The notes beneath the pieces were generated by a model that did not search any database, had not been told where the DNA came from, and was given only the letters and a program-made list of their open reading frames with translations. A stretch of DNA of 63,642 bases, counting the filler, from Reticulomyxa filosa (lineage: Eukaryota > Protista > Foraminifera): the NCBI GenBank assembly GCA_000512085.1. It is 19 parts of 19 records of this genome, joined end to end, with 100 filler letters (N's around TTAATTAATTAA, not from the genome) between each part and the next. Parts side by side here need not be neighbours in the genome. Positions count along the whole stretch, not along the records: positions 1 to 3,734 come from ASPP01004116.1; 18 more parts are not named here. One strand, given 5' to 3'. Numbering within the stretch: the stretch's first letter is position 1; each line of letters opens with the position of its first letter. Below, in pieces: positions 1-59,020 of this stretch. A program made the translations under genes and the position numbers.

Positions 1-2
1 TT

Positions 3-3000
3 GGAACTAAAATATCAAAATCACAAGTTTATGAAGCATTCAATCAACAATGGATTGATATTCACGTGAAAGATGTTTCGAATAAATTATCAGAATTGAG
101 AATTCAAACAAACCCCAAAAAAATTAAATTTGCGTTTCAACAATATTGTCAAGACTTGGGATTTGAAATGTTTATTCAAGGAAATCAAGTTGCAACAGAA
201 AATGATGAAATTACAAATATTGTAAACATAAAAACAGATTTAAAGAAGAAAATTGAAGTAAATGAAAATACAGAAATAAAAATAAAGGAAGGTGATAACT
301 CACTCACAAAAAAAAAAGGCATTTGGGAAAAATACTTTACTGGTGATAATATAAGCAAACACGTATCGAAAAAAGATGGAAATGATAAACAACAAAGTGC
401 GAGTGAAGATATGGAAATAAAAACAATGAATGAAATTGTCAATACTTCAGTCGTAAAAAAGCAAGATGTTTGGGCAATGTATTTCAAAGGTGATAGTATT
501 GCTAAATATGTATTGAGAAGAGTTGGTGATAATAAATATCAATTTTTACATAAATCATGTCAAGAATATTATGCAGCACAAAAAATTATATTTGATGTCA
601 TTTCATGGAAACCTGAGATTGATATGACTAATCAACAATTTCAAATACATGCTCAACGATTATCTATCAATCGCAAATTATTAAATGAAGAATTGGGAAT
701 TATTCAGTTTATTGCAGAAAGAATTCATGAAAATAATCCAACATTTGTGAATTTAAAGTCACGATTATTTACTATTATTGAGGCGTCTAAAACAACTGAA
801 CAAGTTAGTATTGCAGCAGCAAATGCAATTACTATTTTAAATTCAGCAAATGTGAATATGCACAATCAAGAATGGAATAATATCAAAATTCCTCATGCAA
901 TTTTAGATCATGCATTTCTTGAAGGAACCAAATTTAATAATGCCAATTTAAATGGTGTTAGCTTTTATCAATCTTGTTTGAACAAAGTCAACTTCACAAA
1001 TGCATCTGTTAATGGGATTTACTTTGGAGAATATGCATATTTGGATGGACACTCAGATCAGATAAAAGGCGTTCAATTTTCACCTGATGGAACAATATTT
1101 ATGTCATTTTCATCTGATACTACTATCCGAATTTGGGATATATCATTAAGAAAACAACTTCAATTATTACGAGGACATACAAATGTTGTACACGCAGCAC
1201 AATTTTCATCAGATGGTTGTAAAATTGTGTCAGGTTCAGGAGATAACACCATTCGAATTTGGGATGTACTATCAGGTCGACAAATAAAAATATTAGAGGG
1301 ACATTCTGATTGCGTAAATACAGTAGAATTTTCACACGATAATTTCAAGATTATATCAGGCTCGTCAGATCAAACTATTCGAATTTGGGATGTAAATTCT
1401 GGAAAGCAAGTTCAAAAGTTGACAGGACATTCAGCATGTGTACATATAGTGATGTTGTTAGACAATTCTAAAATTCTGTCATGTTCACACGATAAAACAA
1501 TTCGAATATGGGATATGCTATCTGGAAAACAAATTCAGACGTTAATACACAGTTCTCGGGCGGTAGGAGTAAGAATTTTATCAAATAAGTCAAAAATTAT
1601 ATCATATGTAAACGATGCAATCATTTATATATGGGATGTATCTTCGGGTGAACAAACTCAAATATTAAAAGGACATTCACAAGTTGTAAATGGAATTGAA
1701 TTGTCATCAGATGATTCAAAAATTGTGTCATGTTCATATGATAATACCATCCGAATATGGGATATATTATCTGGTAAACAAATACAAATTCTGGAAGGAC
1801 ATTCAAATATAGTGACAGCAAAATTTTCACCAGATAATTTAAAAATTGTATCTGGTGCAGATGATACTACAATTCGAATATGGGATGTATTATCCGGAAA
1901 ACAATTACAAGTATTAGAAGGACATTCACATGGTGTAAGATGTGTGGAATTCTTTCCAAATGAGTCGAAAATTTTATCATATTCGTTTGATAAAACAATT
2001 CGAATATGGGATATATCTTTAGAAAAAAAAATTCAGTTAGAACAAGGACATTCAGATATTGTTACTGGGGCACAATTTTCACCAGATGGTTTTAAAATTG
2101 TATCATGTTCACAGGATAGAACAGTTCGATTGTGGGACATACAATCTGGAAGACAAATTCAAGTGTTTGAAGGCCATTCACATTATGTACTTGGAGTATT
2201 ATTTTCATTTGATAGTCACAAAATTGTGTCATATTCAGCAGATAGTACAATCCGAATATGGGATGTATTGTCAGGAAAACAACTTCAAGTATTAGAAGGA
2301 CATTCCAATGGTATAACAGACGTCCAATTTTCACCGGATGGTTCAAAACTGGTCTCAGGTTCAAAGGATAGAACCATTCGAATATGGGATGCATCTTTAG
2401 GAAAAGAGTTGCAATTATTAAAAGGGCATACTTTTTGGGTATTACATGTTCAATTTTCACCAGATGGCTCCAAAATTTTATCTTGCTCTGTTGATAATAT
2501 TCGATTATGGGATGTGTCTTCTGGCACAGAACTTCAAATATTTCAAGGGCATTTTAGTCAGATAAGTGGAATACACTTTTCACCTAATGGATCTAAAATT
2601 GCATCATATTCATGGGACAAAACACTTCGATTATGGGATATATCTTCCGGAGAACAACTCCAATTAGAAGGACATTTACAATTAGTAAAGGGAGCACAAT
2701 TTTCGCCAGATAGTTCTAAACTTGTATCCTGTTCGGACGATAATACCCTTCGATTGTGGAATGTTTCCTCTGGAAAGCAAATTCGAGTATTGGAAGGACA
2801 TTCAGATGGAGTAGAAAGAGTTCAATTTTCACCGGATGGATCTAAAATCATTTCATGTTCAAGTGATAAATCTGTTCGAATATGGAATGCATCTTCAGGA
2901 AAGCAAATTCAATTGTTAGAAGGACATAATGGAAGAATATTAGGAATACATTTATCATCAAACGGTTCCAAAATTTTGTCATTCTCAGAGGATAAAACGA

Positions 3001-3185
3001 TTCGATTATGGGGCAGTGATAATGCCAAAATAATTGATGTAACTGAGACAAATTTGATGAAGTGTATTTGGCAAATGGGCATTCAAGGTTCTGGTCTGTC
3101 AATAAAAGATAGTATTTGGAAAAATACAAGCGGTTTGACTCCTCAGCAAAAATTACTTGTGAAACAACGTGGTGGCACGTTTTGA
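3..3185 (+). CDS. NACHT-associated NLR-like protein, C-terminal part: winged-helix region + pentapeptide repeats + 16 WD40 repeats (5' truncated, intronless)
   Basis: The frame is open from base 3 (GTKISKSQVYEAFNQQWIDIH). It aligns with the NACHT ORF at 11490-13547 (YQFLHKSCQEYYAAQK, IIQFIAERIH, SIAAANA). It has an A-x-L-x-x-A pentapeptide stretch and 16 GH...D.TIRIWD units. Confidence 0.92.
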   Translation, partial: GTKISKSQVYEAFNQQWIDIHVKDVSNKLSELRIQTNPKKIKFAFQQYCQDLGFEMFIQGNQVATENDEITNIVNIKTDLKKKIEVNENTEIKIKEGDNSLTKKKGIWEKYFTGDNISKHVSKKDGNDKQQSASEDMEIKTMNEIVNTSVVKKQDVWAMYFKGDSIAKYVLRRVGDNKYQFLHKSCQEYYAAQKIIFDVISWKPEIDMTNQQFQIHAQRLSINRKLLNEELGIIQFIAERIHENNPTFVNLKSRLFTIIEASKTTEQVSIAAANAITILNSANVNMHNQEWNNIKIPHAILDHAFLEGTKFNNANLNGVSFYQSCLNKVNFTNASVNGIYFGEYAYLDGHSDQIKGVQFSPDGTIFMSFSSDTTIRIWDISLRKQLQLLRGHTNVVHAAQFSSDGCKIVSGSGDNTIRIWDVLSGRQIKILEGHSDCVNTVEFSHDNFKIISGSSDQTIRIWDVNSGKQVQKLTGHSACVHIVMLLDNSKILSCSHDKTIRIWDMLSGKQIQTLIHSSRAVGVRILSNKSKIISYVNDAIIYIWDVSSGEQTQILKGHSQVVNGIELSSDDSKIVSCSYDNTIRIWDILSGKQIQILEGHSNIVTAKFSPDNLKIVSGADDTTIRIWDVLSGKQLQVLEGHSHGVRCVEFFPNESKILSYSFDKTIRIWDISLEKKIQLEQGHSDIVTGAQFSPDGFKIVSCSQDRTVRLWDIQSGRQIQVFEGHSHYVLGVLFSFDSHKIVSYSADSTIRIWDVLSGKQLQVLEGHSNGITDVQFSPDGSKLVSGSKDRTIRIWDASLGKELQLLKGHTFWVLHVQFSPDGSKILSCSVDNIRLWDVSSGTELQIFQGHFSQISGIHFSPNGSKIASYSWDKTLRLWDISSGEQLQLEGHLQLVKGAQFSPDSSKLVSCSDDNTLRLWNVSSGKQIRVLEGHSDGVERVQFSPDGSKIISCSSDKSVRIWNASSGKQIQLLEGHNGRILGIHLSSNGSKILSFSEDKTIRLWGSDNAKIIDVTETNLMKCIWQMGIQGSGLSIKDSIWKNTSGLTPQQKLLVKQRGGTF

Positions 3186-3734
3186 TGTTTGTCTATGAAT
3201 GAAATCAGTTTTAAGCATGTGCATATTTTTTTCTTGAAAGTGTAAAATGATTTTTGAATGACAATTATTCAAACGTTTACAATATTAAGCTCATTATTGA
3301 GTCAATAAGTTGGGAGATTTAAATTTCAATAAAAAAAAATTAAATGAACAAAAATTGGAGACAATCTTGTATAAATATATAATGTTGCAAGTTTTTGTCA
3401 CAACATATTTCTCTTTATCTACATTTGAATTTTGGAAATTGCACAATTTTCAATGTTTCGATACTGAGTCAACAAGTCGAATGGCTCAGTTTTTGTTCAT
3501 GACTTTGTTACAAAAACGTTTCAAAAAATTACAATCATTAATTCAAATTCATTGGCACAAAAAAACATATTTTCTTTAAAAAACGTTAAAGTAAATTTGT
3601 TTGTATTATTGTCAAATTTGATCGTTTTCAGCTATAGTTCTTTTGTATTATTGTTATATTATATTTTTTCACAAACCACTAATAATTTTTTGAACGATGT
3701 AGAACAATACAGTAAGTTGCAAAGAAAACTGAAC

Positions 3735-6648: not shown

Positions 6649-8720
6649 TCAGATATTAGTAGTGCGTACTTGATCATTTTGTTTTGTAGCAGGAGGTAAA
6701 GGTCGCGAATGAATATCGTCACTGGCCTTTATTTGTTTATCGCTAAAATTACGTTTTTTTGGGCCAAAGCCTACTTCCAACATTTTAGAAAGGAAGCGCT
6801 TGCGATACATCGTTGGTTCCATACATGACAATCCATCACCATCATCACAACACAAGTGAACTTTGTAGAAGCGCTCAAACCTCTTAAAGTGATTCCAATC
6901 CTGCAAAATGTCGATTATTCCAATGCAGTAAAATCCAGGTCCTTCTATCAACTCTGCTTTCATTGTGCTTTTGTGATCTTGGACTATGCGCATGTCTTCA
7001 TTTCCTTGGAGTAGAGCATCAGCTCGTTTCTTTGTATCTTTTCCTTTGGCTATTTGCATTTTTAAAATGCATTATATACATAATAAATTGATATTGCAAA
7101 AAATAAAAGAATGTCCCTTTTTAAAAAAAAAGTGGACACGTAACCGGCAGTTTTGACTTGACGAAAAGTCTGTTCATCTTCGAATTCTTCAGGAAGAGTA
7201 CCTTGTTGAGGTACACCCAAATCTTTGAGTTTGAGATCACTGCTCGGTTTCCACATTGGAGCCAGGGCGGGATGCAATCCTTCCGGAACAGTGCTGGACG
7301 AGGACGACACCACAGAGTTGGCCTCTTTCGGACGAGAAGCTCCAGGTTTAGCATCGAGTCTTAGTCGGCTTGCTGTTTGCAATTTGGGCGCTTGATATGA
7401 TTGATATCGATTTGTCTTGAACGAGTCTTATTTATGATTTGATAATATTGTTATCATTATTATGTATCATATGTACATATACATATGTGTATATATTGCA
7501 CACCGTATAAAGGTGCAAATACCCAATCGCTGGAATAAATGTGTGAAGAATCCAGTCCGACATTATAAATGCCGAGCATGAGAGAGTAGTCCATGACTTG
7601 GGATTGCTCCAAGAACTTGGTGTCGGCTTTGAGCTGATTCCACACCCGAATGGATACATCTTCAGGCAACAGCACATTTTTATGGAAATCGCGATCCTTC
7701 ATCACTTTCTATGCGCGTTTGTATTGCAATGTGAAGCATTGGAAGGCAAATTTTTTATTTTTTATTATTTTTGCAGAGACATAAATGATCAACCTTTCGA
7801 TGGAAATGTGTGATCTCAAACATTCTGTTAAACAAATAAACAAAAAAAAAGCACTCAACTCCGAGTTCCGTGTGATGACGAGTCACCCTACGCACAAAGG
7901 ATCCTTTCAAGTCATATCGCTCGTGTGGAGTGTATCCCGGAACAAATATGTTATTCATCACCACAAAATACAATTTTGTGCCGTGGATGTGTATACAATG
8001 CAACCTACAATACGTAATGCAAAAAAAAAAATAACAACATGCCAATCACACACACAAGTCTATTTATATTGAAAAAACTATTGACATTGGACTATATGCA
8101 CATTACCCAAAGTATTTATTAATAAGGGAAGATTGATAGGTCTTAAAATGCTGCACGTAGGACTGCAGCATCCGTACGCATGTAGGCACTTCATCAAACT
8201 CCCTCAGCGATTTAATAAAATATTTGGAGTCTGGTGTCAAAAAAAAGAATGCCCTAAGAGGGAGAAAAGGGGGGGGGGGGGCCAACCAGTCAATAAATAA
8301 ATAAAAAAACATTGTTTGCAATTGTGCGATTTGAAAAAAATGAAATAGAAATAGAGGTAGAAATGATGTAACATACCCAGACTTGCCTTCAGAAAAATTA
8401 CACTGAGACAACCAATCATTTTCGTCTTCCAATTTAATGCTTTGCAAGTACTCCTCGTCCGTAATCTGGTAAAGTTCTCTTCGCATTGCCCCAAACACGA
8501 AAGGCGCGTAGTCCGTGAACTCCACGTGCAAGCCCTTGGTGGATTGGTTTCCGGTTGTCAGTTTATTTTCCAGTACCACTGCAAATTTATTTACACCTTT
8601 GGTATCGCTGATTGACTTTGGAAAGTGTTCGTCTCCGACCATTTCCAGTTTCAGTCCCTTGGCTTCATTCGACTCCAACTTGGTTGCTTGGCGGATGCCA
8701 TTGATCATATGCACCACAAT
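6649..8720 (-). CDS. PIP5K: Phosphatidylinositol phosphate kinase (PIP5K family), multi-exon, 5' truncated
   Basis: FTDYAPFVF, SEGKSG/AFFFLTPDSKYFIKS, YDLKGS, DTKFLEQSQVMDYSLMLGI and GIIDILQDW occur in order across GT-AG introns. Confidence 0.92.
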
Positions 8721-11489: not shown

Positions 11490-13547
11490 TGCATTTGCTG
11501 CTGCAATACTAACATTTTCACTATTCTTTGATGCTTCAATGATCCGAAACAATCTTGATTTCAAATTTACATATATTGGGTTGTTGTCATGAATTCTTTC
11601 GGCAATGAATTGAATAATTCCCAATTCGTCATTTAATAATTTATAATTGATGGATAATTGTTGGACACATGTTTCAAATTGTTGTTGAAATTGTTGATTA
11701 TTAACATCAATCACACTTGGCTTCCATGAAATAATATCAAATATCATTTTTTGTGCTGCATAATATTCTTGACATGATTTGTGTAAAAATTGATATTTAT
11801 TGTCACTAACCCTTCTTAATACATATTTTGCAACGCTATCACCATTGAAATACTTTTCCCATGTATCTGACGTTTTTGTAGCTGATATTTTAATATCATT
11901 TATTTTTGTTATTTTTGATACATTTTTAGCCACATTGCTACCACCAAAGTATTTTTTCCAAAAAGTACTTTTATTTTCATTTTCCATTTCTGGATCGAGT
12001 TTACTCCAAATTTCACCGTCATTATTTTCATATTGGGATTCTAGTTCAACAGCAACTTGATTTCCTTGATAAAACATGTCAAATCCTAAATTAAGACAAT
12101 ATTGTCTCAATGTAGATTTTACTTTGTTGAAATTCATTTGTATTCTTAATTCTGCCAATTTAGAAACAATATTTTGGCTATGAATATCAATCCATTGATC
12201 ATTGAATACTTCATATACTTGTGCTTTTGAGATTCTGCTTCCTGTACCATATTGTTTCACTAATAATGGCAATACAGTTAAAATAAGCTGAAGAAGAAAT
12301 GGTTCTTCTATCATTTTCTGTAAATTTGGATAATTGTTCAGTGTTTCTTCATAAGTTTTAGATGTCCAATCATTATTATTCTTATTTTTGGATTTCATTG
12401 TCGCAAATTTTTCAATATAATTATAAATTTGTTGTTTTGTAAATGGCCACAAAAACATCATTGACGTTTTTATATCTTGATCTTGATTTTGATTTACACC
12501 AATTAAAGTGTTTTTAATATCTTTATCACTTAATACTTTACTTCTACAAGTGACAATCACTTTTGCATTCCATTGATTTAAATTGAAACGATCATAGAAA
12601 TATTTATCATTGTTATCACTTTGATTATATTTATCAAAAACTTCATCAAAACCATCCATAATAAATACAAATGATACTTTTTCACGAATCGCATCCATAC
12701 TTTCTTTGCTGATATGCTTGCCTTGTAAAGCTTGTAAAATGATATCTTTTTCATTTTTTGAATTATAAATTTTTGAAAAAGAGATATACACAGGAACAGA
12801 TTGTTTTGGATTATTTTTATAATTGTTCCATAATATTTCTTCCAAATGACGACAAAATATGCTTTTTCCTGATCCTGATTTTCCTTGTATTATCATTACT
12901 TTTCCTTGTTGTCGTTCACTTTTTTTTTCTTCTCCTTCTAAAAATTCAATGATATGTTGATGACAATCAAATGTATCATTTTTTTCATTATTGTCACCGT
13001 CATATGGATATGTATTTGCTTGTAATGGAATGTATGTTTCCAATGCTTGTGATATTGCAATATCTTCATCCATTTCTTGTTTTCTTGATTCTTGTAATAA
13101 TAATGCAAAGTCGGCACAACTTGCTGGATTCTTGTCTCCAATGATATATTTTTTATAGTATTCATATAAAATCATATAAATAGCTTTTCCTTTTATTTTC
13201 TCTGGAGTGAATTTACATAATTGTTCATATACAAATTGTGCTATTTTCAATGATACATCACTATTAATTTCCAATTCATTTTTAGATAGTTGTGGTGGCT
13301 TCAATATTCCAATATCCAAATGTGATCTATAACGATTTGCTATTTTTTGTATTCCTTTGTCATCAATCCACTCACAAATGATGTCATTAATTTTTGTCAA
13401 AGTGTCATCACTTGCTTGTTTTAAGTCTTCTTCTGAATTCTTTGGTTTCCATGCCCTGATGTGCTCATAAAACAAATGACTTAATTTTGGATTCTCAATT
13501 ACTGTGTATCCTTCCAATGTTGTAAAATTTTTCAATGTTGCTTGCAT
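11490..13547 (-). CDS. NACHT NTPase (STAND) NLR-like protein, N-terminal/central part (spans the entire contig)
   Basis: Walker A GKSGSGKS, Walker B FIMDGFDE, VIVTCR, PFLL and FLHKSCQEYY. Paralogous to 3-3185. Confidence 0.93.
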
Positions 13548-31417: not shown

Positions 31418-34175
31418 TCAATTGATTATATCTTTCGCTGATTCAATACTCACTAGCTCTGTTTCTCCTTTTTTTTTGATATGTAATGAAAAAGCAATTG
31501 TTAAAAAAGATATAGAAATTAAATAAAGTTAAACTTTTTTTGTTTTCACGATTGAAATTGCAAAAGGAATATTGCGAAATAATGATAGCCAATATAAAAC
31601 AGATATCTATTGCAATAAATCCAACACAAAAAAAGATCATGACAGCATGTGGATTATAGTACATTTCATCACCAAATGCAGCAGATAACACCCAAATGAC
31701 TTGTTGAAATACAAAAGGTCCAACCAACATGGATAATGGAAATGCAGGAGTTTCTTTAGATAATTTGTAATAGAGTATATTATTATCTTTATCATTATTC
31801 AATAGATGTACTGCCAATAAATCATGTTGTTTATTAGTTTTGTTTTTATTTAATAAATACTGAAATTTCAAAATATTAGATATAATTACCATTGCACATA
31901 ATGGTACAATAAGAGGACAAAATAATCCTACTAATATTACTAATTCTACATTTGCAAACAAACTTACAGTTTGAAAATTTAATTTTGTAGGAGGACCACT
32001 GATTAATGGACAACTTTGACATTGAATTCGAGAAATAAGATCATTTAGTAATACTGGAATCCATGGTGTAAATATATTAATTACCATTTTGACTACCATA
32101 ACATTTCCCCATTTTTCAAGAATTTCACGAATACATCCACCTTTTTTTTTATTATTTGATAAATTTAAATAAATATACTATATATACACATATATACATA
32201 TATATTTAAACTAGGTTGAAAAGTTGGAACTTTACACAAATCACCCCAGTCCAACACTACATCATTTTCGTCTATGAACCATTCAATGGATTGATTGTAA
32301 TGCCATCGATAAGTAAGAATAGTCTCCTCCATATTTTGTTGATTACAAGTATCCCAATAATGTATCCATTTTCCACCACAATTATTGTAAAAATATAAAG
32401 CAAGAATAAGAGGAATTGGAATACATACTAAAGTCCGTAATAATAATGCCAGATAACCTCGAGCTTTTCGAACCAATATACGATTTTTAATTCCTGCAAA
32501 ATAAACAATAAATTCAATTATATAAAAAGCAAGATTTGGTGAAATAAAAGAATTATGTATTGATAATACCAAAGACATAATAATTTGAATAAAATAAAGT
32601 AATGAAGATGATATATGTAATGTATTATTATCTGGAAATGATTCAAATGCAAAATACATTATCACACATGTTATTGCTAAACACCATTCTAAAAATGTAA
32701 TTATAAACATCATTCCTTTTTGACAAGTAAATGGATGTAATTTGTAATTTAATGATGTATTATCAATTATATTAGTTGTAAGGAATGAAGATTGTATTAT
32801 CCATCGAAATGTATAAATTAAAATTATACCATTAGATAATAAAATAATTAATACTAATATAATTGTTATTGATAAAGACGAATTTTCAAAATATGCTAAT
32901 GATACATGTGATAATGGATATCCTTTTTCATAATATGTAGCATGTAATACATAAATTATTACCAAAGTAATTATTATTATTGTTTCAAGCCAATTATTTA
33001 ATAATCTCAATAATACTTTCATTTGTTTGAATCCAGGATGAATTGGAAGTTTTGCTCGCATTGAACCACAAAAACGTCTATCTCCACATCGTTGTTTAAT
33101 AAATGAAATTTTTTTAAATTGACGCAAAAATAATATTAATGTAGTTACAATAACAGCTCCAATTAACATCATTTCCACAAATACACTACTATTTGCAACA
33201 TATAAATTTTTTGCATTTCTTTCATCACTTGATACATAATCTGGTAATGATTGATCTTCATATACTTTATACCATGTTTTTCCTTGTGAAAATCGATTAC
33301 CTGATAAATATAATCCATTCTTTAATTTCATTGAAACATTAAATGATAATCTTAATTCTATTTATAATTTATTTTTTTTTTTTGTTATTGATATATATTC
33401 AAATAAAACAAACTAAAAACCTGAATCGGTGAAATCAACAATAATATTATTTCGAGTACTGAAATCACCAGCCTGCAATAATCCATTAGGCATTGGACCA
33501 GATAAACGATTTTTTAATAAAGTGGAAAATGCAATATTTCCTTGAATATCACTCCAAGGCAATAATCCATTTATTCCGCAATCATGCGCAAGAAGCATTG
33601 TTACACTTGAATTATATAAATATTTTGGAAGTTGTCCTGTGAGTTGTTGATTACCATATATCGATAATATTTGCAATATTGATGTTTTTGAAATTAATTC
33701 AGTCAACCTTTTAATATACATATATATATATCTTATTTTAATTATCAAAAAAAAAATATATATATATATATTTATATATATTAACCATTCATGTAAATTA
33801 TGATCTGAAAATTGATTTCTATGTAATGTAAAAATAAATGTTGTATTCATTTGATTAGGCAATTTAGGTAATCTACCATTAAAATTGTTATTTTCAATTG
33901 ATAAAATTCTCAAATAATTCCAATTGAAACTTCCATTAAATGGAATTGTTCCACTTAGCATATTATCATTAACAGAAACAATAATCAATGAAGGCAATTT
34001 GTGTAATGCTGGCAACTCACCACTTAATTTGTTATGACTCAATACCAAATATTGTAACATAGATAAATTTTCAATTCCTTTTGGTATAGTTCCACTCAAT
34101 TGATTTTGACTTAATACAATATGAGTTAAATTTTTCAAAGTTCCAATTTCTTCTGGTATAGTTCCCTTCAATCTG
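31418..34175 (-). CDS. Extracellular-type LRR protein fused to a ~10-11 TM domain; 5' truncated, multi-exon
   Basis: Plant-type LxxLxLSxNxLSGxIP repeats at 33413-34171 continue (LYLSGNRFS) into many hydrophobic helices at 31443-33331. Confidence 0.75.
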
Positions 34176-34187
34176 TTTTAAAAAATT

Positions 34188-48585: not shown

Positions 48586-51500
48586 AAGGAACAATTCCAG
48601 GATTTGAAATGTTTAAAAATGAAAGTTCAATCCAATCAATTGGAACTAACACCAGATTTAGAAAAGCAGTTGTCTCGTTTTGTTGAAAGAACAGACAAAA
48701 AAATAATTCGAAGGATAATGACAGCATGGACACATGTGGCAAAAAAAGAAAACAGAGTTGAAACGCAGCCATCAAAATTGATCAAAGATTATTTGCAAAA
48801 CACATATTTTTTTTCGGATGAATTAAATTTTTTTCCACAGCAGTCATTCAGTTGGGACTATTGTATTAACGGATACAATTTTGTCGTTTCGTGCTATGAG
48901 AATCTCAAAACGATTAAAATTCATTCAACTCCAATTGTCATGATCGACTTTATGGAGATTTTTGAGCATGCCAATTTACAATGGGAAAAAGGAAAAGAAG
49001 TTACTTTTATTTATTTATTTATTTTTTTAAAAGTGAAGGAAAATGTATCCGACATAAACAAATTCAAACAAACAAAAAAAGAAAAAGAAAAATTTTATTT
49101 TGTTGTTTATGATAAATTAAGTCTTCGGAACAATGGGAAGCACAATTCAATAAATTATGGGAACTGCATGATACCTGGCAAAAATTTAAGCAAAGTATAG
49201 AGATGATTCGGAAATATCATCAAAAAAAGAATGAAATAATAAACGATACTGAGTGGAAAACACTTGAAGAAAAGTTAGACATGAGTAAACAATTGCTGGA
49301 AGGCAAAGCTGAAATGTCAATTGAAGATGCAATCCACAATTACGATTGGTGTGTGGAATACTTTGGAGACATTAAGGAGTATGTAAATATTATCGAATTG
49401 ATCATAAGCAATGAGCAAAAAATTCAAACAGTTGCAAGTGATGAAATGTTTGCGGACAACACAATGTTTAACTTTGCATTGGAAAAATTGAAGAATTGTG
49501 ATACTGAAAAATTCCATCAATTGATTGAACCATTGTATAATGTCAATCAACCACTGCAAGAAAAAATATGGAAAACAGATTTCAAAGGAATGTGCGTGCT
49601 TGCCAGGACAGTACTTACAATTATGAAAGAAAATGAAACATTTGTAATGCAATTGGAACAATGTTTGAAAGTAGATCTCCATGCTCTTCTTCGTGTCATG
49701 AAAAAAGGTGATGATGTGATGGTTCAAAAAAAAAAAGATGAGTTTGTACAAGCACATCAACAAGGGGATTGGCTGTTTGATGATTACGATACCATTTATT
49801 CTGCATATTCGCGTTTAAAAAGTGGCAGATATGAGGGATTGTCACTTCAGTTTGGAAGTAACAAATTGACTTGTGAAGAGATAGAACATTCCATAGATCT
49901 ACTAAAACTTGGTTTGACAAGTGAAGAAAAGAAAGATATTGAAACGATCATTTCACAATTTGAAATTTGCAAAGATATTTATGCCATTCGAATGGATTAT
50001 TGGGAAAAAGGAGGCACTTCATCTCAAGATAAGCTGAAGTTAGCAGCAAGTAATCCCATTCCAAACTTTGAGAGCCAAAAAATTATGTGGGTTGAAAAAT
50101 TGAAACAGTGGAATAAGGATTGTATCGAATTGCGACACAAGTATCCATGTTTGGCATACTTTACAATGAATGAAATACAACAATTGGTTAAAGATTTGAA
50201 TCATATCAAAGCACATGAACCCCAATATTGGGATATATTAGCATCCAAGTATATTGTACCCTTTTTACAAAGATTAGATTATCAAATACAGGACGCATCT
50301 CAAGTGTTACATAAATGGAAAAATCAGAATAGCAAAGATATGCGATCATTACAAGAACTTGGATGTATTTTTTCCAAAGTTTGGATGAAATCAAAAAACA
50401 ATCAAAATGCACCCAATTCCATTTCCATATTATCATCATTAAAATCAGGGAGGCCTAACTTGGTCATTGCCAATCAAAACAATAAACTATTTTCGATGTT
50501 AAGTTTGTATGAATCTATTGGATTGATACCTCGAGCTGAACATGTACTTTTGTGCAAGGAGACGACAACAGAAGAGGAAGTGGAATGTTTGATATTGCGA
50601 GCATTACTATATGTGAAAGATATAAATTCCAAGACATCATTGTATTGCTTAGTTTGGCCAGAAAAATTGCAAATTAGAATATTGGAGAAAGTAGTAAATC
50701 TTTTTCAAAAATATTTTTTTGAGCCATCAAGATCGCGACGAATACAATTGTATTTGTTCGCAGTGATATCCTCCAATCATGATAATGCATTATCTTACTT
50801 CTTGCGAGGATTGGAGTGGAACGTCTCTGGTGAACTGAATAACCATCAATTTAATATCAACGAAGCCTTGTATTCACAAAAATTTGACATATTACCTCCA
50901 AATGCACGAGGTCATTCATTTTATAGGGTGAAGCTGTACGAATTCACAAAAGTAGGTTTGGGTAAAAGTTGGAAAATCCAGCGAGATATTCAATGTTTGC
51001 AACAACAAACAAGTAGAGTACAAAGTGTTCGCCTACGCTTCAACAGTGGTAATATTGACTGGGAAGATATTGTCAAGACATTATGGACATATCATCCATG
51101 CCAAGTCAACAGTGCATCCAAAGATAGTATTACTGGCGTAAACAAGAGGATAAAAGATTTTAATTATTTCAAAGATAATTGGATTGTGTATCATATTGAT
51201 GTGTCCTCTTGTGTTAATAAAGATATCAATGATTTCTTTTTCCAATTGTTGTATTTACAACACATTGACGCTATGAATTGTAGCTTCCACGTCAATCCAA
51301 ACATGATCTTTTTCATTGAGATCCCTTGCAAACTCGATATGTTTTCGGACACACCACACAACTTTTTTTATACCTTATTTTTCAACACACGATTCCAAAT
51401 GAAATCAAAACTCCCTGCGTTCAATGTTGGAGACAAAGGCCGGTCCAGCATCGAATGGATGGAAGGATTTTTTGCCGGAAAATTGGAGTTTTGAAAAGTT

Positions 51501-57630: not shown

Positions 57631-59020
57631 ATGACAACTCTTGCCGATGAAAAACAAGCTTCAATGCATCCAGCATTGGTAACCTTTATTTAATTTTTCA
57701 GCCCTCTTTGTGTTTGGCTTATTTAATTTTTTATTACATGTGATTTTTAATTAAATTAGTTAGAAGAAGAAAAAATACAAATAATTATCCAAAATTGGGT
57801 CCGAACATTAAACGTTAAATTAGGATGGATTCATGATTTTGACAAGCTTGTTGTTGACTACGTTAGGATTTTTGTTTTTCATTTAATGACGATCAATAAA
57901 ATATTTTTTTTATCACTTCATAACATAGGTTGCAACTATCCTCTTCTTTGATGTATTTCATTCATCATCTAAATTACTCAAGACTTTACATGGACATACA
58001 GATTACGCAAGAAGTGTTGATTATTCAACATTTGATGGTAGTCAACTTATTTGTTCTGGATCAGATGATAAAACAGTTCGATTATGGGATGTTGATAACA
58101 ACAAACAAATTCAGTCATTCAATGGACATCTAGATTCTGTGTATTGCGTGAAATTTTCACCATATCATAATCATAATCATTGTAATGTCATTTGTTCTTC
58201 ATCAAATGACAAAACCATTCGTTTTTGGGATATTAAAAATAATAAACAGTTACAAATATTCAATAAGCATACTGGTGGTGTTGGTGGCATTGAATTTTCA
58301 TCATTTAATAATGGTCGATATTTGTGTTCTGGATCTCGTGACTACACTATTCGTTTATGGGATGTCGAAACATCCAATTTATTACATGTATTCAATGGAC
58401 ATACAGATGGTGTTTGGTGCGTTGATATTTCACCTTTGCAAAACAATAAAAACAATAGTAAAAGCAATAATATTGGCGTGATTGGTGGAAATGGATACAC
58501 AATTTGTTCTGGATCATCGGATACAACTATTCGAATATGGGATATTGAAACAGCCAAACAATCGAATGAATTCAAAGGACATGAAAACGCGATTATGAGT
58601 ATAAAATATGGATCAAATGAATTAGGAAATATTGGTGGTGCAAATACAATATTATCTGGATCGCATGATAAAAGTGTTCGTTTGTGGGATATTCGATCTG
58701 GTCAACAAATTCAAGTGTTCAATGGACATTTGAAGGAAGTGAACGTTGTTAAATATTCGCCATTTGTAATAAATAATATTGAAATTGGTAATATTTCGAA
58801 TGTAATATGTTCTGCGTCAATTGATAGAACAATTCGTTTTTGGGATATTCGATCAAATAAAAAAGAATTGTATGTTCTCGAAGGAGATGAGAGGGATGGT
58901 GGAATATATTGCATTGAATTTCTACAATTGAAAAAGAAAGGAAAACAAATTAACAGCAATGATAATCTTGTCAAGCTGTGTTATGGTTCATTTAGAGGTA
59001 CTATTTACATCTGGGGGTAA
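57631..59020 (+). CDS. WD40-repeat protein of the expanded foraminiferan family (3 exons)
   Basis: MTTLADEKQ | EEEKIQIIIQNWVRTLNVKLGWIHDFDKLV | about 7 WD repeats (ICSGS.DKT.R.WD) ending IYIWG*. Confidence 0.9.

Follow-up and report, generated by a model that had tools for sequence, protein, structure and literature searches.

A candidate family of NLR-like receptors with diversified WD40 propellers and a predicted RelA/SpoT-type synthetase domain in Reticulomyxa filosa

In Apaf-1, which belongs to the signal transduction ATPases with numerous domains (STAND), the ATPase is held by two WD40 propellers that clamp the ligand; this protein is of the NB-ARC type, has a CARD adaptor, and is encoded by a single conserved gene that serves one ligand. 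The HNWD proteins of Podospora, encoded by het-d, het-e, as well as het-r among a total of 10 genes, combine HET and NACHT domains with a double WD40 propeller of 7+7 blades made of 126-bp units that are >80% identical (PMC1805685, PMC12222747). RelA_SpoT-NACHT-WD40 architecture has been recorded for a fungus (PMC4986451), and RelA_SpoT is regarded as a canonical but rare effector of fungal NOD-like receptors (NLRs; NOD, nucleotide-binding oligomerization domain), accounting for under 1% of the annotations and presumed to make ppGpp (Dyrka et al. 2014, PMC4986451; PMC12258605). The window analyzed here, a stretch of 63,642 nucleotides from the foraminiferan Reticulomyxa filosa (assembly GCA_000512085.1) that consists of 19 contig pieces with 100-base linkers between them, contains on its first piece (positions 1 to 3734) a WD40 repeat gene, referred to below as the focal gene, whose visible part is the C-terminal ~60% of an NLR-like gene. 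This gene is not an HNWD member, yet it is HNWD-like at the sensor, has diversified by another route, and belongs to a family with an unexpected effector. On balance, it appears to encode the sensor half of a Reticulomyxa NLR-like invader detector coupled to a nucleotide pyrophosphokinase.

The focal gene belongs to a large family. In a search with residues 1 to 345 of its product, 57 of the 96 matches were labeled R. filosa, as were 6 of the 13 matches in a longer-protein search, for a total of 63 paralogs. These residues are 47 to 68% identical to the 50 best R. filosa paralogs, and the helical plus winged-helix part shows a mean identity of 75% to the paralogs. Among the 64 family proteins, the Walker A motif is present in 56, the Walker B motif in 57, and a winged-helix motif in 56. 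Full-length paralogs comprise 1700 to 1990 amino acids (aa), and many family records are partial; their database labels are NACHT or WD40, and a few have a precomputed RelA_SpoT match. PF00805 is precomputed on many paralogs and is not among the 25 Pfam matches listed for the focal protein, and none of the four candidate versions of this protein was matched in the protein collection. The designation “NLR-like” in the initial annotation fits the post-NACHT helical and winged-helix domains and the C-terminal repeat sensor of the focal gene, as well as the NACHT domains of its paralogs. However, no NACHT domain lies within the visible part of the gene itself, and the one at 11490-13547 (Pfam NACHT E value of 2e-10) belongs to a different paralog, P0051, which is encoded on a separate piece of the window and is 55% identical to the focal gene. 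P0051 was considered as the missing front of the focal gene and rejected because the two overlap in homologous sequence at this level of identity.

The complete paralogs carry two domains ahead of NACHT, a four-cysteine domain (seen in 44 to 45 of 49 aligned rows, with look-alikes in eukaryotic clusters at a score of 0.94) and a RelA/SpoT-type domain. A structural model of residues 1 to 432 of paralog P0019, in which a Pfam scan found no HET domain, had a predicted local distance difference test (pLDDT) score of 88.5. The best Foldseek match to this model was Tas1 (E value of 1e-7). In a VIA comparison with 48,161 chains, the top 11 rows were all RelA/SpoT homolog (RSH) synthetases, with Z scores from 14.1 to 8.6, including Bacillus subtilis SAS2 (Z score of 14.1, root-mean-square deviation [rmsd] of 3.6, 164 residues aligned) and Tas1 (Z score of 12.7). 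The N-terminal domain of the paralogs is predicted to have the RSH synthetase fold; in P0019, this domain spans roughly residues 120 to 315. When the synthetase was used in an Atlas search, no lead exceeded 0.90, and a PDB sequence search with the profile of the full family gave only WD40 proteins among the 60 matches listed. The focal gene itself probably encodes a synthetase domain, judging from its grouping in trees with paralogs that have one, and, like its paralogs, presumably a NACHT domain; the synthetase was missed in the initial annotation because, for this copy, it falls outside the window.

The residues K164, R168, K172, D186, R189, E249, and Q251 are kept in 45 to 48 of the 49 rows, and include the basic syn1 residues, the syn2 Asp, and the syn4 Glu (the syn1-syn2 register comes from the alignment with Tas1 and the syn4 register from relatives). 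The synthetase domain is 80% identical among 21 paralogs, versus 64 to 68% for the neighboring domains. The predicted fold and the donor-side catalytic residues are shared with Tas1/Apk1, Apk2, the toxSAS synthetases, and CapRel. The family differs from all of these in that the domain is joined to a STAND sensor and occurs in a eukaryote; no immunity gene was seen. Of the Apk signatures RYT, GxN, and YH (PMC12226406), the first is resembled by RFT at syn2 (45 of 49 rows) and the second by Asn at syn3 (46 of 49 rows, but preceded by Phe), whereas Ala-Thr stands where YH would be expected. Thus, measured against these signatures, syn2 is Apk-like, syn3 is partly so, and syn4 (EMQAT) fits neither type.

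A synthetase profile built from family members matched 57 of the 64 family proteins, in some cases only at the end of the domain; the other 7 start downstream of it. The same profile matched none of the 45 non-Reticulomyxa NACHT relatives. A synthetase search of 1.84 billion representatives yielded 94 matches, and the distant relatives include bacterial-type polymorphic-toxin proteins with an extracellular contractile injection system (eCIS) core and RelA_SpoT tips. Four of the matches (P0119, P0126, P0136, and P0152) come from metagenome or environmental records without the Reticulomyxa label, so that the module likely occurs in other organisms, too. In the R. filosa protein P0122 (1017 aa; source label “vcbs repeat-containing”), the four-cysteine plus synthetase module is found at residues 591 to 972, behind an unrelated N-terminal part, which may represent a different fusion or a gene-model error.

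The sensor array of the focal gene consists of 16 WD40 units, 12 of them 126 bp long, three of 123 bp, and one of 120 bp. It is recognized by Pfam (WD40 E value of 4e-153, in 15 stretches) and by Tandem Repeats Finder (period of 126, score of 714), in agreement with the unit number and length given in the initial annotation, and all eight of the hexamers that it listed after the Gly-His pair are present. Its description of the array as homogeneous with a near-constant scaffold is at odds with the pairwise identities of the units, which average 50% for protein (range, 29 to 71%) and 65% for DNA (48 to 77%); without the three most variable columns, the mean protein identity is 54%. Only four unit columns are invariant (H2, S20, D24, and W30, with the Gly of Gly-His as column 1). 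Variability just after Gly-His, as claimed initially, is indeed seen at columns 5, 7, and 4, but the initial annotation overlooked the most variable position, column 23, which lies in the b-c turn and takes 13 different residues across the 16 units; column 6, flanked by variable columns, is always Val, Ile, or Ala. Repeats of ordinary WD40 proteins are 10 to 20% identical (PMC1805685), and high internal conservation in fungi has been defined as over 80% (PMC12222747) or 85% (PMC4986451); the units of this array are well above the former range and well below the latter thresholds.

In the AlphaFold2 model of the focal protein (51-row alignment; mean pLDDT of 82.9), structural alignment divides the array into two predicted 8-bladed propellers, with a likely closing strand of the second propeller at aa 1020 to 1025. 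The first propeller aligns with Tako8 (Z score of 42.3, rmsd of 1.6, 316 residues) and ODA16 (Z score of 44.8), and Apaf-1 was a further structural match (Z score of 34.9, rmsd of 6.6). By the secondary structure of the model, columns 5 and 7 lie at the entry of strand a and column 23 in the turn mentioned above; in HET-E, the selected codons 7, 9, 25, and 27 have been placed at such sites on the top face (PMC1805685). The conserved HET-E sites 8 and 26 show the same 18-codon spacing as columns 6 and 24 here; by the text of that paper, columns 5, 7, and 23 would correspond to HET-E codons 7, 9, and 25, three of the four selected sites.

Variability among paralogs was assessed in the focal protein and 28 paralogs with at least 15 repeats; P0102, P0043, P0025, and P0044, which are likely out of register, were excluded. 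Residues of the same blade at columns 5, 7, and 23 are identical with a frequency of 0.11, which falls within the chance range of 0.07 to 0.12. The corresponding values are 0.69 for the propeller core, 0.59 for the bottom loops, 0.57 for the outer strand, 0.33 for adjacent top columns, 0.77 for the helical domains, and 0.41 for the predicted disordered insert. The low identity at the three columns is seen in all 16 blades, and even in the 15 closest pairs (85 to 88% identity in the helical domains) it is 0.07 to 0.29. Codon models, which cover only the 16 units of the focal gene, gave a background ratio of nonsynonymous to synonymous substitution rates (dN/dS) of 0.16. A random-site model placed columns 5, 7, and 23 in a class with a dN/dS of 3.2 to 3.5 (P values of 0.027 and 0.034). 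With these columns fixed, ratios of 3.0 to 4.0 were obtained under three frequency models, and likewise when branch lengths were left free, when units 5 and 16 were taken out, and when multi-hit changes were allowed for; control columns on the bottom face had a dN/dS of 0.3. The three-column set was picked from the paralog variability, in which column 4 has a value of 0.18 and thus hardly differs from column 7 with 0.17. Diversifying selection at columns 5, 7, and 23 is likely but not proven. Variation is concentrated at these columns, with a dN/dS of ~3, rather than spread evenly with values below 1 everywhere. The diversifying receptor family in a protist that the initial annotation envisaged is retained as a protist NLR-like family with hypervariable sites at HET-E positions, with modest support for a dN/dS above 1.

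The way in which the repeats evolve sets this family apart from HNWD. A nearest-neighbor test was run on 304 repeats from 19 proteins with 16 detected repeats each, the focal protein included. For 182 repeats (18 expected), the closest relative occupied the corresponding blade in a different gene; for 112, it was a different blade, again in a different gene, and for only 10 (15 expected) it lay in the gene of the repeat itself. The mean repeat identity within genes (0.50) barely differs from that between unrelated blades (0.49). In a larger set of 52 proteins, none of the 16 units of the focal gene was nearest to its own gene. Repeats group by blade position and not by gene; therefore, the array has been inherited as a block and has not evolved in concert. 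Concerted homogeneous repeats like those of HNWD, proposed initially for this gene, were rejected, as its units resemble those of other genes as much as they resemble one another. Among the 32 proteins with a complete C terminus, 17 have 16 detected repeats, 8 have 15, 5 have 14, and 2 have fewer. Two of the 52 proteins are exceptions, with most repeats closest to their own gene (11 of 14 in P0101 and 14 of 16 in P0102), and a subgroup with 14 repeats (P0009, P0030, P0032, P0034, and P0099) is intermediate in self-grouping. In all of these, the repeats are more homogeneous (61 to 76% mean identity), with the top-face columns still variable; homogenization therefore occurs in some lineages. Both propeller trees contain a five-gene group with support of 98 to 99 in the Shimodaira-Hasegawa-like approximate likelihood ratio test, and the helical-domain tree breaks up this group with a branch supported at 97.5. 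Because approximately unbiased tests favor the best tree of each partition by construction, only supported conflicting splits were used. This well-supported conflict between the helical-domain and propeller-scaffold trees suggests that sensor regions have been swapped between paralogs. Diversity would arise from gene duplication, point changes on the surface used for binding, and exchange of sensor regions among paralogs, not from shuffling of near-identical repeats.

Compared to the HNWD proteins, this family shares the NACHT domain, a predicted double propeller, the unit length, and probable selection at three of the four equivalent top-face codons. It has a predicted RelA/SpoT-type synthetase (seen in P0019) in place of the HET domain, a pentapeptide linker, predicted 8+8 blades, and >60 genes; the marks of HNWD membership, namely, a HET domain, repeat conservation above 80 to 85% (the maximum here is 71%), and concerted evolution, were not found. 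With the fungal RelA_SpoT-NACHT-WD40 proteins it shares the effector-NOD-sensor order. The effector that is rare in those fungal NLRs would here serve a whole expanded rhizarian family, and it is closest to the Tas1/Apk type. The bacterial-type NACHT-pentapeptide-WD40 proteins P0103, P0057, and P0059 have the same NOD-linker-sensor layout and variation at the same columns; their N termini are different, and their repeats are more homogeneous (82% mean identity in P0103).

A quick unrooted tree was built from 42 NACHT-to-pentapeptide regions after 16 of the 45 non-Reticulomyxa rows had been dropped as partial or unmatched; it contained no HET-D/E rows, and no HET-D/E sequence was among the matches of the two family searches. 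In this tree, the 13 Reticulomyxa rows form one group (support of 100), sister to the metagenome proteins P0103 (98) and P0057 (100), both of which look like secreted bacterial proteins (signal peptide judged by eye). A GTDB scan gave no match for P0103 and a single 33% match for P0057, in the WD40 part only. P0057 has a precomputed match to PF00644 (PARP-type), and the differing N termini of these two proteins suggest effector swapping on an NACHT-WD40 chassis. Transfer from an intracellular bacterium has been proposed for other eukaryotic NACHT groups (10.1101/2022.07.19.500537); by analogy, acquisition of the Reticulomyxa NACHT-WD40 module from such a bacterium is plausible.

By analogy with known STAND and RSH families, a ligand would bind between the hypervariable faces of the two predicted propellers and release the NACHT ATPase switch, and the ensuing clustering would activate the N-terminal synthetase. 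This enzyme would move pyrophosphate from ATP to an acceptor, with (p)ppApp or a related product as the best guess and ppGpp, tRNA pyrophosphorylation, or no activity as alternatives, and its product could drain ATP or arrest growth. A predicted binding surface that varies near-randomly among copies, joined to a domain with the predicted fold of bacterial alarmone-making toxins, makes the family a likely intracellular alarm against invaders. A more specific scenario can be put forward only tentatively. In it, a foraminiferan would have assembled its innate immune repertoire of >60 NLRs by linking a NACHT-WD40 sensor of bacterial type with a (p)ppApp synthetase similar to Tas1 and acquired from bacterial toxin systems. 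The outcome would be a eukaryotic receptor-gated, ATP-draining defense that owes its diversity to sensor swapping and to selection acting on each of the 16 blades, not to concerted repeat shuffling. Several observations weigh against a synthetase-coupled detector. Sequence matches to synthetases are weak on their own: the Pfam RelA_SpoT E value for residues 1 to 432 of P0019 is 0.002, below the cut-off, and with a profile of ten NACHT-side fragments, Tas1 was the better of only two PDB sequences found up to an E value of 10, at 0.46. The acceptor-side motifs are atypical (HRFHN versus YRD and EMQAT versus ExQLH in relatives), which leaves the product in doubt and makes an inactive domain conceivable, and the NACHT and synthetase regions of the focal gene lie beyond the edge of the window. 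On the sensor side, dN/dS values come from 16 units of one gene with synonymous sites near saturation (~0.9 per terminal branch), and the statistic seen with the real data was also attained in 2 of 127 simulations under the null model. The ratio falls to ~2 when column 4 is added (P values of 0.015 to 0.044) and to 1.7 to 2.9 for the four HET-E-equivalent columns, for which P values range from 0.004 to 0.14 by model, several of them being nonsignificant (0.14 and 0.07 to 0.08).

Other explanations were considered for the same data. The propellers could serve allorecognition: on contact between the pseudopodial networks of two Reticulomyxa individuals, they would read polymorphic proteins of the partner, and the effector would shut down the region of fusion in the manner of fungal HET-D/E. 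A cell that forms a fusing network would benefit from such a system, and the selected positions are the same as in HET-E. However, hypervariability among >60 paralogs of one assembly fits a repertoire for foreign ligands at least equally well, and the concerted, high-identity repeats of the HNWD type are absent from the focal gene. Invader sensing is favored because the measured diversity spans many paralogs, and allorecognition appears improbable, although it is the strongest of the competing proposals. A slightly poorer case can be made for the RelA/SpoT-type domain as a decoy, nucleotide-binding, or adaptor module, with signaling through other partners: the adjoining four-cysteine domain is of a eukaryotic type, but the residues that bind the donor ATP and the metal hardly vary, and none of the parts compared is more conserved than this domain.

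It is also quite unlikely that the variable columns merely represent surface positions free of constraint in a redundant, expanding family and play no part in recognition. In favor of this view, the support for a dN/dS above 1 is modest and depends on the chosen columns, and many family records are partial. Yet these columns diverge faster than the predicted disordered insert and far faster than the loops of the opposite face, and the dN/dS was ~3 in all variants with the three sites. The least credible of the proposals, and a very improbable one, is that the contig derives from a bacterium, either an endosymbiont or a contaminant, and that secreted NACHT-pentapeptide-WD40 effectors of this bacterium were assembled together with host sequence, as might be suspected from the signal-peptide-like starts of P0103 and P0057 (again judged by eye), the intron-free visible part of the focal gene, and the bacterial look of the distant synthetase relatives. 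Opposed to it are the 63 copies on separate contigs labeled R. filosa (one clade in the 13 analyzed), the eukaryotic look-alikes of the four-cysteine domain, the lack of the synthetase in the sister proteins (0 of 45), and the G+C content of the first piece (31%), which is inside the 27 to 40% range of the window.

Intracellular immune receptors of Rhizaria are barely described, and a synthetase-coupled invader detector of this kind would be a testable candidate with a soluble effector domain. If correct, it would bring into eukaryotic immunity the alarmone type of toxin, which is known from competition between bacteria and from defense against phages; the family also bears on the idea that the RelA_SpoT domains of NLRs are active effectors and indicates that surface diversification of the HET-E type is possible without concerted repeat evolution. 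In the literature on Reticulomyxa and Rhizaria, no description of a RelA_SpoT-NACHT-WD40 family was found among the matches listed, which were judged partly by title; the 2014 genome paper may mention the expansion. The available part of PMC10959488 contains nothing on the Reticulomyxa family, and the available portions of the main texts of PMC12691689 and PMC13581612 contain no synthetase-NACHT-WD40 fusion. Coordinates of the features of the focal gene and of the second family member are listed in Table 1.

Table 1. Positions in the window of the focal gene, its predicted parts, and the second family member
Feature	Position	Strand	Basis or remark
Open reading frame of the focal gene	3..3185	+	1060 aa visible; open at the 5' end, cut by the edge (base 1)
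Helical and winged-helix domains, located after NACHT in paralogs	3..857	+	Secondary structure of the model
Predicted disordered insert	~201-500	+	pLDDT under 50 for aa 67-166
Motif FLHKSCQEY	543-569	+	Present in 56 of 64 family proteins
Pentapeptide-repeat beta-helix between helical domains and propellers	858..1046	+	Strands recur periodically in the model
First WD40 propeller, predicted to have 8 blades (units 1-8, aa 342-673)	1026..2021	+	Model and structural alignment
16 WD40 units	1047..3047	+	Hypervariable codons at unit columns 5, 7, and 23, then 4, 8, and 25
Hypervariable codons of unit 1 (columns 5, 7, and 23)	1059-1061, 1065-1067, 1113-1115	+	
Second WD40 propeller, predicted to have 8 blades (units 9-16, aa 681-1008)	2043..3077	+	Model and structural alignment
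C-terminal tail common to paralogs	3048..3185	+	Ends with KQRGGTF and stop
Second family member (P0051), on a separate 2058-base piece, cut at both ends	11490..13547	-	Synthetase end, NACHT, helical domains

Several other genes were noted in the window. A second, unrelated WD40 gene at 57929-59020 (plus strand) has ~7 units with insertions (Pfam WD40 E value of 2.5e-48) in a frame without NACHT and likely represents another expanded Reticulomyxa family. The 792-aa frame at 49116-51494 (plus strand) has no Pfam match and no clear PDB match; a tentative resemblance to RNF213-like large ATPases has no computed support. On the minus strand, the frames at 31443-33361 have the appearance of a multi-pass membrane protein, and a leucine-rich-repeat frame (33413-34177) is located upstream of them; together, they possibly form a leucine-rich-repeat receptor. 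The next contig piece after the focal gene carries, also on the minus strand (6649-8720), parts of a gene for a phosphatidylinositol-phosphate kinase (PIP5K, E value of 5e-9), an ordinary eukaryotic gene.

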